The position numbers were made by a program, and so were the translations under genes. Shown here piece after piece: positions 40,780 through 45,135 of a stretch of 64,000 nucleotides of DNA. The stretch spans positions 8,298 to 72,297 of the forward strand of contig CAYLSI010000014.1 in NCBI GenBank assembly GCA_964386545.1. Reading direction: 5' to 3'. Origin of the DNA: an uncultured Hyphomicrobium sp. GTDB lineage: Bacteria > Pseudomonadota > Alphaproteobacteria > Rhizobiales > Hyphomicrobiaceae. The notes beneath the pieces were generated by a model. That model saw only the letters and a program-made list of their open reading frames with translations, ran no database searches and was not told the DNA's origin. The number at the start of each line of letters is the position of its first letter. The stretch's first letter is position 1.

Positions 40780-41171
40780 GCAAAACTCCCAAACTCAAAC
40801 GCGGTGCGCCGGAGCGCTTTCTTTAACCGACCCGGCCGAAATCGGGCACGGGCCTTCGGTGACCTTCGTTACCGGCCAGCGCCGCCGGGGGACGTGCACC
40901 CTGGCAGCAGGTCGCCGGCCGCAACCCCACAGCTCGGCGCGGGCCCGGGCTTGAGCCTTGCGGCGCCGCCTTCCGCCGCCCGCCCGCTCACGGCTCCCGA
41001 AGGAGACGCAAGACGAGACCGGACGGCTCCGGCTTGGCCGCGAGGCGGTATCCGCACGGGCGCGGAGCGCTTCACCGCTTGCCGCCGCTCCCCCTCTCGG
41101 CCGAAGCCTCGAAGGCGAGCATTGGCCGGAGCAACGGCCGGCTTCCCAGAAGTCGAGATCGCTTGGAAGGC

Positions 41172-41243
41172 GATTGGCATGGGAGTCGAACCCACGACAG
41201 CGAGAGTAACAGTCTCGTGCTCTACCCACTGAGCTAGCCACTG
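41172..41243 (-). tRNA. tRNA-like sequence with anticodon GTT (Asn), apparently degenerate
   Basis: Canonical D-arm (GCTCAGTGGGTAGAGC), anticodon arm CGAGA-CTGTTAC-TCTCG and T-arm (GTGGG-TTCGACT-CCCAT). The 8-9 linker is missing relative to the tRNA-His-like 5' GTGGCTA, and acceptor 1:72 and 3:70 are mismatched. Could still be annotated as tRNA-Asn by covariance tools. Confidence 0.4.
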
Positions 41244-41315
41244 GAGAAGCCAAAGGGACTCGAACCCCCGACCGCCCGGAGATGTCCGGGTGCTCTGCCG
41301 CTGAGCTATGGCCTC
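41242..41315 (-). tRNA. tRNA-like sequence with CAT in a non-canonical 6-nt anticodon loop (Met/Ile2-like), with 3' CCA that abuts or overlaps the 5' end of the neighbouring tRNA-like sequence
   Basis: Good acceptor stem (GAGGCCA/TGGCTTC), D-arm, T-arm (GGGGG-TTCGAGT-CCCTT) and encoded CCA. The anticodon arm is CCCGG-ACATCT-CCGGG, a 6-nt loop. Confidence 0.4.
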
Positions 41316-41618
41316 ATTTTTTTACCCGAGGTCGTGCGGAACACGCCGCCGCAAAGCGGTGCGCGCCAGCCGGGTCTCAGCGAGACCGGACACGTGGCAC
41401 TTGTCAGGTGCCTCCGAGTAAGCAGCCAATTCCGGCGAAATTCCACTCCGAACATGGTGAACGGCGCCCTGTCCGTGACCGCTCGGCAACCCTTCCCCAG
41501 CGCCGGCGCCGTTTTGCCCTGTCGCGCGTTGCACTCGTGCCGGCGGGGGAGTAACGACGGAAGACAGACGATCCTCTGTCGCCTGCGGAACAGCGGTCCG
41601 CGCGGGCCGGCGTCAGGG

Positions 41619-41636
41619 TGGCTGCAATTTTGCAGC
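41619..41636. promoter_or_regulatory. perfect 18-bp palindrome GGCTGCAA-TT-TTGCAGCC immediately upstream of the GMC oxidoreductase RBS
   Basis: Read directly. Resembles the TTGCAGCG half-sites at 10721-10754. Confidence 0.3.
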
Positions 41637-41652
41637 CATTTGGGAAATTGCG

Positions 41653-43356
41653 ATGTCGAGATTGAGCTTGCCGCTCAGCGTCCTCAAGGCGCGGTACGAT
41701 GTGGTCGTCGTGGGCTCGGGCTACGGCGGCGGCGTCACGGCCTCGCGGCTCTCGCGCGCCGGCAAGCGCGTCGCGGTGCTCGAGCGCGGCCGGGAAATTC
41801 CGACAGGGCAATTCCCGCAGAAATTCTCCGAGCTCAAGAACGAGTTCCAGGTCACGGGCGCGAGCTTCCGCACGGGCTCCGAGCAGGCCCTCTACGACGT
41901 TCGCCTCGGCCGCGACATGCACGTGCTCGTCGCCTGCGGCCTCGGCGGCGGCTCGCTCGTCAATGCGGGTGTCTCGCTCGTTCCCGACCGGCGCGTCTTC
42001 ACGGACGAGGCCTGGCCGGGACAGCTCGCGCAGGACGGCACCATCGAGGAAGGCTATCGGCGCGCCGAGCAATGGCTGCGCCCGGCGTCCGACCCGCGGG
42101 CGCGCGAGATGACGAAATACAAGGTGCTCGACACGGCCGGCGCGGGCCTCGGCGGAACGGTGGTCGCGCCGCGCATCGCGGTGAGCTTCGAGGACAACGT
42201 CAATCCGGCCGGCGTCCATCAGAGCGCCTGCACGCGGTGCGGCGACTGCTGCGCGGGCTGCAACGTGGGCGCCAAGAATACCGTCGCGCTCACCTATCTG
42301 CCGGACGCGGTGCGCCACGGCGCCGAGCTGTTCACGGGCCTCAAGGTCGAGACCGTGCGCAAGGCGGCCGGCGGCGCGTCGCAAGGTGTCTGGCAGGTCA
42401 AGGCGCGCGTGATCGCACCGGAGCGGGGCGCGGCCACCGAAGTGCTCATCGAAGCGCCCGTCGTCGTGCTGGCCGCGGGCACGCTGGGCTCGACCGAGAT
42501 CATGCTGCGCTCGCGCGAGGCGGGTCTTGCCGTCTCCGACCGGCTCGGCCATCGCTTCTCGGCGAACGGCGACATCATCGCGTTCGGCTACGGCGCGAAA
42601 TCGACCGTGAACGCCGTCGGCGTCGGCTATCCGCCCAAGGTGGCCGATCTCGAAATCGGCGCGGCGGTTTCCGGCCAGATGGAGTTTCGCGACGCGGACG
42701 TGCTCGCCAACGAGCTCCACGTGCAGGAAGGCGCGCTGCCGTCGGCATTCGCCTCCGTGCTGCCCGTGCTGTTCGTGCCGAACGGCCGCCTGCTCGGCGC
42801 GCTCTCGAGCCTCGTCAACGGCGTCTACAAGGGCCCGTTCGCGAGCCTGCAGACCTTCTTCGCCGTGTCGCACGACAGCGCCTCGGGCCGCTTCTCGCTC
42901 GACGGCAATCAGCTCGCGCTGTCGTGGGCCAACGCCAAGGACGAGCCCGTCTACGCGCGGCTCGACGCCATCCTGTCGCGGCTCGTGACGGCGAGCGGCG
43001 GCTCCTACGTCAAGAACCCGCTCGCGGGCACCGTGATGGGCCATCAGCCGGCGACCGCGCATCCGCTCGGCGGCTGCGGCATGGGCCGCGACCGCAGCGA
43101 CGGCGTGGTGGACCACAAGTGCCGCGTGTTCAACGGCGCGGCGGGCGCGGGCGAAACGGCCGTGCACGAGGGGCTCTACGTCATCGACGGCGCGGTCGTG
43201 CCGCGCTCGCTCGGCGTCAACCCGCTGCTCACGATCACGGCGCTCGCCGAGCGCGCGATGATCCACTTTGCGCACGACCGCGGCCTGCGCTACACCACGG
43301 CGCCGGCTACGGCCGAAGCCGCCGCGCCGGCGAGCTACGCCGCCGCTTCGCCCTAA
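41653..43356 (+). CDS. GMC-family FAD-dependent oxidoreductase (cholesterol/choline oxidase-like)
   Basis: N-terminal FAD fold YDVVVVGSGYGGGVTASRL. C-terminal GMC catalytic region HPLGGCGMG. Confidence 0.8.
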   Translation: MSRLSLPLSVLKARYDVVVVGSGYGGGVTASRLSRAGKRVAVLERGREIPTGQFPQKFSELKNEFQVTGASFRTGSEQALYDVRLGRDMHVLVACGLGGGSLVNAGVSLVPDRRVFTDEAWPGQLAQDGTIEEGYRRAEQWLRPASDPRAREMTKYKVLDTAGAGLGGTVVAPRIAVSFEDNVNPAGVHQSACTRCGDCCAGCNVGAKNTVALTYLPDAVRHGAELFTGLKVETVRKAAGGASQGVWQVKARVIAPERGAATEVLIEAPVVVLAAGTLGSTEIMLRSREAGLAVSDRLGHRFSANGDIIAFGYGAKSTVNAVGVGYPPKVADLEIGAAVSGQMEFRDADVLANELHVQEGALPSAFASVLPVLFVPNGRLLGALSSLVNGVYKGPFASLQTFFAVSHDSASGRFSLDGNQLALSWANAKDEPVYARLDAILSRLVTASGGSYVKNPLAGTVMGHQPATAHPLGGCGMGRDRSDGVVDHKCRVFNGAAGAGETAVHEGLYVIDGAVVPRSLGVNPLLTITALAERAMIHFAHDRGLRYTTAPATAEAAAPASYAAASP

Positions 43357-43382
43357 CAGCCGAGATCCACAGCCGAGATCCG

Positions 43383-44321
43383 ATGCGTATCGAATACCAC
43401 CGCACGCTCATCGCCGACGGCGTGCGCAACACAGCCTTTCACGATGCGCTCGCGGCCGTCATCCTGCGCGGCAAGACCGTGGTCGCCGACATCGGCGCGG
43501 GAACCGGGCTTATCGGCCTCATGGCGTCCAAGCTCGGCGCGCGCGAGGTCTATCTCTACGAGGCGGCCGAAGTGGCGGGTGTTGCGGCCGCGGTTCTCAA
43601 AGCGAACAAGGCCAAGGGCTGCCAGCTCATTCCCGGCCATTCGACCGAAATGGACGACCCTCCGCTCGCCGACGTCGTGGTGTCGGAAACGCTCGGCAAC
43701 TACGCGCTCGAGGAGAACATCATCGACACGCTCGCCGACGCGCAGCGCCGGCACCTCAAGTCCGGGGGCGTGATGATCCCGCAGCGTATCCGCCAGTTCG
43801 TCTGTCCCGTCGTCTCGGATCGCTTTCACAACGAGCTCACGGTGTGGGACGGCGTCGGCTTCGGCATCGACCTTGCGGTTGCGCGCACGATGAGCCTCAA
43901 CAACGTCTATGTGCGCTCCTTCACGGCCGACGATCTCTTCGACGGCGGCGAGGCGGCCAAGCTCTGGGATACGGTGACGCTCGGCGCCGAGACGCGCGCC
44001 AACCGCAAGGGCGAGGCGACCTGGAAGATCGACAGGCCCGTGACCGTGCACGGGTTCGCCTATTGGTGGGAAGCGGATCTCTCCGACACGATCACGCTCT
44101 CGACGTCTCCCGCCGCGCCGCGCACGCACTGGGAGCAGCTTTTCTTCCCGCTGCTCTCGCCTATCTCGCTCGAACCGGGCGAGAGCCTGCTCGTGACGCT
44201 GCGCTCGCGCTCGAGCGAGGACGAGGGCACACACCTCGCGTGGACCGCAGTGCATTTCCGACGCGACGGCGGATCCAAGGGGCGCCAGGCCATGGATCTC
44301 GACAAGGGCTGGATTCCCTAG
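43383..44321 (+). CDS. protein arginine N-methyltransferase (PRMT)-like class I SAM methyltransferase
   Basis: Motif I VADIGAGTGLIG. Post-I acidic YLYEAAE. Double-E loop VVSETLGNYALEE. Motif III LKSGGVMIPQ. THW loop RTHWEQLFFPL. C-terminal beta-barrel-like region. Confidence 0.7.
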   Translation: MRIEYHRTLIADGVRNTAFHDALAAVILRGKTVVADIGAGTGLIGLMASKLGAREVYLYEAAEVAGVAAAVLKANKAKGCQLIPGHSTEMDDPPLADVVVSETLGNYALEENIIDTLADAQRRHLKSGGVMIPQRIRQFVCPVVSDRFHNELTVWDGVGFGIDLAVARTMSLNNVYVRSFTADDLFDGGEAAKLWDTVTLGAETRANRKGEATWKIDRPVTVHGFAYWWEADLSDTITLSTSPAAPRTHWEQLFFPLLSPISLEPGESLLVTLRSRSSEDEGTHLAWTAVHFRRDGGSKGRQAMDLDKGWIP

Positions 44322-44369
44322 AGCGCGTTCACTTTCATCAGACTCGGATTTCGCGCATGAACGCGCTCT
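44320..44369 (+). terminator. 12-bp perfect-stem hairpin (AGAGCGCGTTCA...TGAACGCGCTCT) starting in the PRMT-like stop codon; followed by a T-containing tract
   Basis: Read directly. Confidence 0.45.
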
Positions 44370-44417
44370 AAAGTCTTTGTTCGAGAGCCTGCGTCACGCC
44401 CTCGCTGCACGCTCTCT

Positions 44418-44489
44418 CCTCTTGCCCGCCTTCGGCAGGATACTCTTGCCTGCCTTCGGCCCTCTATCTTTGCCTGCCTTCGGCAGGAC
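44418..44489. repeat. three imperfect tandem copies of a ~24-bp unit (CTCTTGCC[C/T]GCCTTCGGCAGGA); copy 3 forms a perfect CCUGCC-UUCG-GGCAGG tetraloop hairpin
   Basis: Read directly. Confidence 0.6.
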
Positions 44490-44661
44490 GCCGCCCGCAT
44501 CTCGGACGATCAGGCTCTCATCGCGCGCGCAATTTTGCGTACGTATACCGGCCGGAACAGCACGATCATTCGCGCGCGGCCATGATGCGTTTCAACGGCG
44601 ACGATCAACGACCAAGATCGCCGTGATCCTGTGCAACCGTCCGCATCATGGAGATCCCGAT

Positions 44662-44943
44662 ATGCGCACACTGCTCGCCCTCACGCTCATCGCGACCTCG
44701 TCCGCTCTCATCTCGGCTGCGCCCGCCATGGCCGAGAAGATGGGCTCGACGACGCACGTCTACAAAGACGGCCGCCCGAAGATCAAGCATCTCCCGCTGC
44801 CCAACGACGATGCCTTCAAGGGCTGGAACGCCAAGTCCGTCGCGAAGCTGAAGCTCTGCTATAAGGGCGGCGGCATGTTCAAGTCCGGCGGCAAGTGGGT
44901 CAATGGCCGTTGCCGCTATCCGGACGGCACGTCCTGGAACTAG
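44662..44943 (+). CDS. small secreted protein (93 aa, signal peptide MRTLLALTLIATSSALISAAPAMA, 2 Cys)
   Basis: ATG at 44662. Cleavable signal peptide. Followed by a 10-bp-stem hairpin (CCGATCCGAT-aga-ATCGGATCGG) at 44951-44973. Confidence 0.5.
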   Translation: MRTLLALTLIATSSALISAAPAMAEKMGSTTHVYKDGRPKIKHLPLPNDDAFKGWNAKSVAKLKLCYKGGGMFKSGGKWVNGRCRYPDGTSWN

Positions 44944-44949
44944 ACCGTT

Positions 44950-45050
44950 TTCCGATCCGATAGAATCGGATCGGCCCGCTCTAGATTCTTGCTTTGTCGC
45001 ATTTTCTTACGACGAACCGGCATCCACTTCGTCGGAAAATGCTCCAATGC
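44950..45050. repeat. dispersed intergenic repeat, copy C (extended form: upstream hairpin + CGCTCTAGATTCTTG + core hairpin)
   Basis: Near-identical to copy D (56165-56256) over about 90 bp. Core shared with copies A and B. Confidence 0.8.
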
Positions 45051-45135
45051 CCCGCATCGTCATCGCGCCGGAATGGACAACGGCCAGGTGGATCGCTCCG
45101 CCTGGCCGCTTTGCTTTCCACGAGCGACGATCGCC

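Follow-up and report, generated by a model that had tools for sequence, protein, structure and literature searches.

A full-length bacterial relative of the eukaryotic protein arginine methyltransferases at a core chromosomal locus of Hyphomicrobium

Arginine methylation by PRMT-type enzymes (protein arginine methyltransferases) is commonly regarded as a regulatory system of eukaryotes. Here we analyze a stretch of 64,000 nucleotides from an uncultured Hyphomicrobium sp. (contig CAYLSI010000014.1, positions 8,298 to 72,297; hereafter the window), which codes on its plus strand for a PRMT-like methyltransferase of 312 amino acids (aa) dependent on S-adenosylmethionine (SAM) (43383–44321), and, just upstream of it, for a GMC-family oxidoreductase dependent on flavin adenine dinucleotide (FAD). 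We find that the 312-aa gene codes for a genuine bacterial relative, of full length, of the eukaryotic PRMTs and that the locus belongs to the core chromosome, with no acquired two-gene module. Far from being a rare acquisition, the gene belongs to a large and conserved bacterial family, of which it is an ordinary member. Its product is, in our judgment, rather probably a minimal type-I-like arginine (guanidino) N-methyltransferase, the substrate of which is likely to be a protein of the translation apparatus, and the gene of which was relocated behind the GMC gene.

The translation presents every PRMT signature quoted in the original prediction, and in the order given there: motif I, the SAM-binding glycine loop (VADIGAGTG, residues 34–42; 43482–43508); the post-I glutamate, E60; the double-E loop (SETLGNYALEE, residues 101–111; 43683–43715); motif III (LKSGGVMIPQ, residues 125–134); and the THW loop (RTHWEQLFFPL, residues 247–257; 44121–44153). 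The barrel-like C-terminal region that had been suspected is supported both by the Pfam model PRMT_C (46.5 bits against a cut-off of 27; E = 5e-12), alongside which PRMT5_C also matched, and by an AlphaFold model built on an alignment of 63 sequences (pLDDT 95.2, pTM 0.91). Pfam and the model together give the architecture as a Rossmann domain, a dimerization-arm insertion and a C-terminal β-barrel, with no accessory domain. The predicted arm occupies approximately residues 144–175 (43812–43907, plus strand like the other segments), where the model places short helices at 147–152, 154–157 and 165–172, and it aligns to the arm of PRMT6. The structural comparison that had been proposed as a check was run with Foldseek and matched the model, over its full length, to PRMT6, CARM1 and PRMT1 at TM-scores of 0.80–0.86.

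Searches of solved structures lead to the same family. Against all PDB chains, phmmer returned PRMTs only, with PRMT6 as the best match (E = 2.8e-29, residues 3–268) and with the double-E and THW loops in register, the former opposite SEWMGYGLLHE of PRMT6. A profile of 63 family members reached a best E of about 6e-42 against the PDB, with PRMT1/8/6 at about 1e-41, and ranked the type I enzymes (PRMT1/8/6, CARM1 and PRMT2/3) above PRMT7, PRMT9 and PRMT5; no solved bacterial member was found among the PDB chains in this profile search. By these comparisons the protein stands, among the solved PRMTs, closest to those of type I. Sequence, profile and predicted fold all kept it among the PRMTs and apart from the generic small-molecule class I methyltransferases.

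The conservation of the SAM-binding residues and substrate glutamates, which the original prediction had put forward for scrutiny, was likewise borne out. In 31 homologs of 27–78% identity, D12, R15, G38, G40, G42, E102 and W250 are invariant, and E60, E111, T248 and H249 are retained in at least 90%; in a second family alignment (A4) E102 and E111 are both invariant, and across sequences of 27–80% identity the SAM-binding and catalytic residues are invariant or nearly so. The two glutamates lie nine residues apart, the same offset as that of the two aligned glutamates of PRMT6. We take E102 and E111 to be the counterparts of PRMT1 E144 and E153, and presume that the equivalents of PRMT1 R54, motif I and E100 contact SAM while the two glutamates and the THW histidine clamp the guanidinium. 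Both the SAM pocket and the guanidinium pocket thus appear to be intact.

The original prediction had described bacterial PRMT homologs as rare, a view that database searches overturn. A word-indexed search recovered 1784 relatives, the closest of which are all of 312 aa and from Hyphomicrobium; an exhaustive search of cluster representatives gave 8128 matches at E ≤ 1e-3 and 380 at E ≤ 1e-30; and at least 586 stretches were confirmed in the GTDB set of one genome per species. The family spans Hyphomicrobiaceae, Patescibacteria and Planctomycetota, its distant members (40–57% identity) coming from Patescibacteria, Peregrinibacteria, Peribacteraceae and Planctomycetota. These proteins, of about 310 aa, constitute a large family of prokaryotes, which in Hyphomicrobiaceae is vertically inherited.

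Gene neighborhoods provide a further clue to function. The 80 loci kept from our locus search are all from Hyphomicrobiaceae, and the distant contexts come from four candidate-phyla contigs, in which the PRMT-like gene is found on its own, surrounded by housekeeping genes. A SpoU-family gene lies directly upstream of the PRMT gene, on the same strand, in 57 other Hyphomicrobiaceae loci from 57 species, and in 51 of those 57 it is itself preceded by a methyltransferase gene of the PF10672 (RlmI/K-like) type. The result is a cluster of three methyltransferase genes in which the RlmI/K-like gene comes first, the RlmB-like SpoU gene second and the PRMT gene last (L014–L081; for example L052, 4191–6936). 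In NCBIfam the SpoU gene matches RlmB best and the PF10672 gene RlmK/L or RlmI, in both cases below the equivalog cut-offs. In L052, the sole junction that was read directly, the SpoU stop and the PRMT start overlap as TGATG, and alignment offsets suggest near-zero SpoU–PRMT gaps in many other loci. One such cluster (L061, JBNOAI010000009.1), typical of Hyphomicrobiaceae with its RlmI-like, SpoU and PRMT genes and 61% identity, is deposited as Leptospira interrogans strain LS0056; that assembly is probably contaminated or mislabeled.

Linkage to the GMC gene is far narrower: it was seen in 19 of 84 loci, and only where the PRMT is at least 70% identical to that of the window. In a neighbor-joining tree of 92 sequences, rooted on the candidate-phyla members, the GMC-linked genes form a single derived group of 23 tips nested inside the SpoU-linked genes, and because of this nesting we regard the SpoU linkage as probably ancestral and the GMC position as a later relocation. 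The GMC orthologue also occurs on its own: in L089 it is followed by a peptidase S11 gene and no PRMT gene is present, and in L194 a Band_7 gene, a pair of tRNA-like sequences and the GMC gene are followed by a convergent 2-hydroxyacid dehydrogenase gene, again with no PRMT gene. The adjacency of GMC and PRMT is thus, as far as tree and gene order indicate, derived, specific to one subclade and the product of a recent local rearrangement.

Briefly, we advance the following plausible mechanism. Conserved residues, read in the light of PRMT structural knowledge, suggest that the enzyme would bind SAM through motif I, E60 and R15, would clamp a guanidinium group between E102/E111 and the THW loop, and would pass the methyl group to a guanidino nitrogen. 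Since the orthologue is the third gene of the RlmI/K-like–SpoU–PRMT cluster in most Hyphomicrobiaceae species, the substrate would most likely be an arginine residue of some ribosomal or RNA-associated protein. In the window's subclade, the PRMT gene would have come to lie immediately downstream of a GMC gene that was already resident. The two genes are probably co-transcribed there, given a spacer of only 26 bp in which no terminator was detected; the GMC gene would be only a transcriptional neighbor, and the notion of a common substrate for the two enzymes is unsupported, as nothing points to one.

Several observations weigh against this proposal. The protein begins with MRIEYHRTLIAD, and its residue 3 aligns just before HEEMIAD of PRMT6; no in-frame start codon exists between the GMC stop and the PRMT ATG, and the homologs begin at the same place. 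Because the protein begins two residues before the YHRTLIAD helix (equivalent to HEEMLKD), it lacks the N-terminal αX helix with its YFxxY segment, by which eukaryotic PRMTs close the SAM pocket. PRMT1 M48 and M155, which we take to tune product type, are replaced by L9 and I113, respectively. The description of the bacterial homologs as functionally uncharacterized also still holds, in that the searchable literature yielded no experimentally characterized bacterial member of the PRMT-like family, nor any PRMT-fold enzyme from bacteria for which a protein substrate is defined; what it did yield of relevance was a comparative-genomics statement (PMC3417536) and the reports on SznE. The linkage to RNA methyltransferase genes is confined to one family and absent in the candidate-phyla bacteria; it may therefore reflect inheritance of the gene order instead of a link in function. 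The neighbor-joining tree carries no support values, and its GMC-linked group takes in four SpoU-linked tips. Finally, the GMC–PRMT pair stays together in the subclade even where its flanks change, with an Nramp gene inserted in the flank in one locus (L082) and ZnuABC upstream and no PHB depolymerase gene in another (L084), which leaves room for functional coupling.

This persistence of the pair across about 20 genomes, even with differing flanks, lends some substance to a small-molecule pathway, in which the PRMT-like enzyme would N-methylate free L-arginine or a guanidino metabolite and the GMC enzyme would oxidize the same or a related metabolite. Bacterial free-arginine guanidino N-methyltransferases have been characterized, among them SznE/StzE of streptozotocin biosynthesis (PMC11705231, PMC12637814), and the nearest bacterial relatives of the eukaryotic PRMTs are placed by Aravind and colleagues (PMC3417536) in secondary-metabolite operons beside flavin amine oxidases. 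However, no nonribosomal peptide synthetase, dioxygenase, LSD1-type amine oxidase or other biosynthetic gene was found near the window locus; most of the family shows no linkage to a GMC gene, and the GMC orthologue can occur alone; and the family is present in the reduced genomes of candidate phyla. The GMC enzymes, moreover, oxidize alcohols, not guanidines. We accordingly regard such a pathway as an improbable alternative. The same gene adjacency could be read as a writer–eraser pair, in which the PRMT-like enzyme would methylate arginines and the FAD enzyme next to it would strip off those methyl groups by oxidation, much as LSD1 does; beyond the adjacency, it can draw on the LSD1-like oxidases that PMC3417536 reports near bacterial PRMT genes. 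The flavoenzyme of the window is, though, of the GMC/cholesterol-oxidase class, with the alcohol-oxidizing His/Asn site aligned, and is no amine oxidase, and the pairing is not kept outside one subclade; hence, we give this idea hardly any credence.

A quite different origin was proposed in the original prediction, namely that the GMC–PRMT pair is an acquired module, which could extend to a horizontally acquired island next to tRNA genes, possibly bearing a eukaryote-derived PRMT. The locus does adjoin tRNA-like sequences, and lineage-specific repeats and a small orphan open reading frame (ORF) lie downstream of it. Yet the G+C content, which runs from 0.64 to 0.72 across the window, shows no compositional break at the locus, where it is 0.68–0.70 and equal to that of the flanks. 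The whole neighborhood is kept in Hyphomicrobium sp. LHD-15, in H. zavarzinii ATCC 27496 and in about 17 further genomes, and such core synteny of the pair among relatives was precisely what the original prediction had named as grounds for giving up the acquired module. The tRNA-like pair goes with the Band_7 (SPFH) gene irrespective of the presence of GMC or PRMT genes; in every case with flanks long enough to check, it adjoins that gene, and the strand is the one seen in the window. The pair is no evidence for an island insertion here. Further, PRMT identities track those of the neighboring genes, the tree nests the clade of the window inside Hyphomicrobiaceae, and relatives at ≤56% identity in several bacterial phyla outscore every solved eukaryotic PRMT. 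None of the features by which a genomic island is recognized (atypical composition, absence from relatives, insertion at a tRNA gene) was found at the locus, and an island is very unlikely. There remains the name under which NCBI and UniRef list the homologs, "50S ribosomal protein L11 methyltransferase", that is PrmA, for which one can cite a Pfam PrmA match to the Rossmann region (30.4 bits, residues 23–132); at JGI many of them are named "protein arginine N-methyltransferase 1". The Pfam match covers only profile positions 155–257 of 296 and leaves the N-terminal part of the model, the L11-binding domain of PrmA, unmatched; the C-terminal half is a PRMT β-barrel; and the NCBIfam PrmA equivalog models score 12–21 bits against cut-offs of 183–327, roughly ten-fold or more below. 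These equivalog scores leave the NCBI name unsupported, PrmA was rejected as a family assignment on the three counts together, and the chance that the protein is nonetheless the L11 methyltransferase is negligible. The naming is a systematic misannotation.

Our preferred reading therefore remains that of a type-I-like arginine methyltransferase acting in the sphere of translation. A bolder version of it, which we put forward tentatively as a possibility, holds that the family would be the long-missing housekeeping protein arginine methyltransferase of bacteria, a minimal, αX-less PRMT core related to the ancestor of the eukaryotic type I enzymes and acting on an arginine of a ribosomal or RNA-binding protein; the ancestral operon with two genes of rRNA-methyltransferase-like type would point that way.

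At the locus itself, the genes run Sacchrp_dh, HbpS-like, Band_7, the tRNA-like pair, GMC, PRMT, PHB depolymerase and SCO1. ORF calls confirm the arrangement originally described, in which the 312-aa ORF lies 26 bp past the GMC ORF on the same strand. The GMC gene (41653–43356, plus strand) codes for 567 aa and matches GMC_oxred_N (54.9 bits) and GMC_oxred_C (50.3 bits), both above the Pfam cut-offs. It appears to be distantly cholesterol-oxidase-like: it reaches 177 bits on the NCBIfam cholesterol oxidase equivalog against a cut-off of 850, and among PDB chains it matches cholesterol oxidase (E = 2e-24), in an alignment that includes the HPLGG and GVNP segments, which we take to hold the catalytic His and Asn of that enzyme. 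A Cys-rich insert, CTRCGDCCAGC within CTRCGDCCAGCNVGAKN (residues ~192–205; 42220–42260), aligns poorly to solved cholesterol oxidases and may bind metal or form disulfides. The GMC homologs listed are all of the same clade, at identities of at least 69%.

The spacer between the two genes (43356–43381, plus strand) is a perfect 13-bp tandem duplication in which ACAGCCGAGATCC stands twice, the first copy opening on the final base of the GMC stop codon; a scan for sigma-70 promoters gave no match. In relatives, the offsets between the ends of the GMC and PRMT alignments range from about 17 to 220 bp. Upstream of the GMC gene, the element originally described as a perfect 18-bp palindrome proves to be an imperfect, strand-neutral inverted repeat (41620–41637) with 8-bp arms, GGCTGCAA and TTGCAGCC, around a non-palindromic TT, and with two mismatches to its own reverse complement. 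The GMC start codon follows at a distance of 16 nt. It is lineage-specific, being absent from 15 orthologous upstream regions, and was rejected as an operator on account of this lack of conservation. In the same upstream regions (window 41500–41600; L002–L019) inspection by eye picks out a shared promoter-like GTTGCA-N17-GTAACG, and a second shared motif, CGTCACGnGCGGAACAGC, lies about 90–110 nt before the start codon.

Downstream of the PRMT gene, the hairpin and tandem-repeat DNA noted originally is indeed present (44319–44490, plus strand, from a scan for repeats and inverted repeats). It comprises a perfect inverted repeat with 13-bp arms (44319–44331/44358–44370), the hairpin of which begins at the PRMT stop codon, and three copies of a 24-bp unit (44419–44490), each holding a hairpin of the GCC-TTCG-GGC (UUCG) type; neither the hairpin nor the 24-bp repeats occur elsewhere in the window. 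They belong to an intergenic stretch that is peculiar to this lineage and about 815 bp long (44322–45135), the corresponding gap between the PRMT and PHB depolymerase genes in relatives being mostly about 40–200 bp, with a few longer. The orphan ORF of 96 aa in this stretch (44653–44943) has no Pfam match and is absent from related loci, and its N-terminus looks like a signal peptide.

The tRNA-like pair on the other side of the GMC gene (41139–41319, minus strand) is of interest in its own right. The original prediction had spoken of two degenerate tRNA-like sequences and remnants; they are indeed tRNA-like, and non-canonical, but no decaying remnants, the tandem pair being conserved, with compensatory changes, in at least 15 species. 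Against the Rfam tRNA model, the two abutting units reach 53 and 49 bits: unit A (41245–41315) resembles tRNA-Ala, unit B (41171–41243) combines an Asn-like loop with a weak acceptor stem, and a 3′ hairpin follows. One unit departs from the canonical form in a 6-nt anticodon loop and the other in two acceptor-stem mismatches. The RNA shares its strand with the Band_7 gene, and its transcription would lead away from the GMC gene. The element of about 180 nt is conserved as a unit in 15 related genomes, with 79% column identity. With the double cloverleaf and 3′ hairpin as the structure of these 15 sequences, the paired share of cells comes to 98.6% and compensatory changes are seen at 11 pairs; not one of 500 shuffles attained such values, and slid-partner controls gave 36–55% paired.

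Unit A has an invariant G3:U70 pair, the alanine identity element, and an invariant 3′ CCA end, GCUUCUCCA; the loop on its "anticodon" stem is of 4–8 nt, differs in nearly every species and is a GNRA tetraloop in the more distant copies. The loop of unit B measures 7 nt, with an "anticodon" that varies by species (GUU, GGU, UUU, AGG, UCC, GGG, UUG), and the acceptor stem of this unit has only 3 bp in the clade of the window. The element was also found in L002–L013, L016, L030, L082, L104, L117, L118, L170, L176, L182 and L194, and a metagenome scan for the junction pattern returned at least 120 stretches, most of them unrelated tRNA junctions and eight with the element. We found no description of such a tandem tRNA-like RNA in the searchable literature, and it matches only the generic Rfam tRNA model. 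A weak match to Rfam YrlA over the pair, at 24.7 bits where the gathering score is 69, was set aside as a by-product of the tRNA-like arms.

The apparently ancestral linkage of the PRMT-like gene to RlmB-like and RlmI/K-like RNA methyltransferase genes offers a new lead, and cultured strains carry the gene. Should the family indeed prove to be a housekeeping PRMT, Hyphomicrobium, for example H. zavarzinii ATCC 27496, would be a tractable organism in which to study bacterial arginine methylation and the origin of the PRMTs.

In comparison with known systems, the 312-aa protein shares with the eukaryotic type I PRMTs (PRMT6, PRMT1/8, CARM1, PRMT2/3) the Rossmann/arm/barrel architecture, motif I, the post-I Glu, an identical double-E spacing, motif III and the THW loop; unlike them it is bacterial, stands at 22–25% identity and has no N-terminal accessory domain. 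Similarly, PrmA is a class I Rossmann protein methyltransferase, the Pfam model of which touches the protein as described above, whereas the 312-aa protein ends in a PRMT barrel and finds no match in the N-terminal part of that model. Among flavoenzymes, the type I (GMC) cholesterol oxidase ChoA resembles the GMC enzyme of the window in having both GMC domains, N- and C-terminal, and in active-site segments (HPLGG and GVNP) that can be aligned; the window enzyme differs in falling far below the equivalog cut-off and in carrying the Cys-rich insert. The nearest characterized bacterial activity is that of SznE/StzE, a SAM-dependent guanidino N-methyltransferase of free L-arginine from the streptozotocin biosynthetic cluster (PMC11705231; PMC12637814), which is comparable to the 312-aa protein in the reaction proposed for the latter, methylation of a guanidino nitrogen of arginine. 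As summarized in PMC3417536, Aravind et al. (2011) described bacterial PRMT-like peptide methylases in secondary-metabolite operons, beside flavin amine oxidases. These too are bacterial PRMT-domain proteins whose genes can adjoin that of a flavin-dependent oxidase; in the window, in contrast, the partner is of the GMC alcohol-oxidase type, and the context of the family is a housekeeping one.

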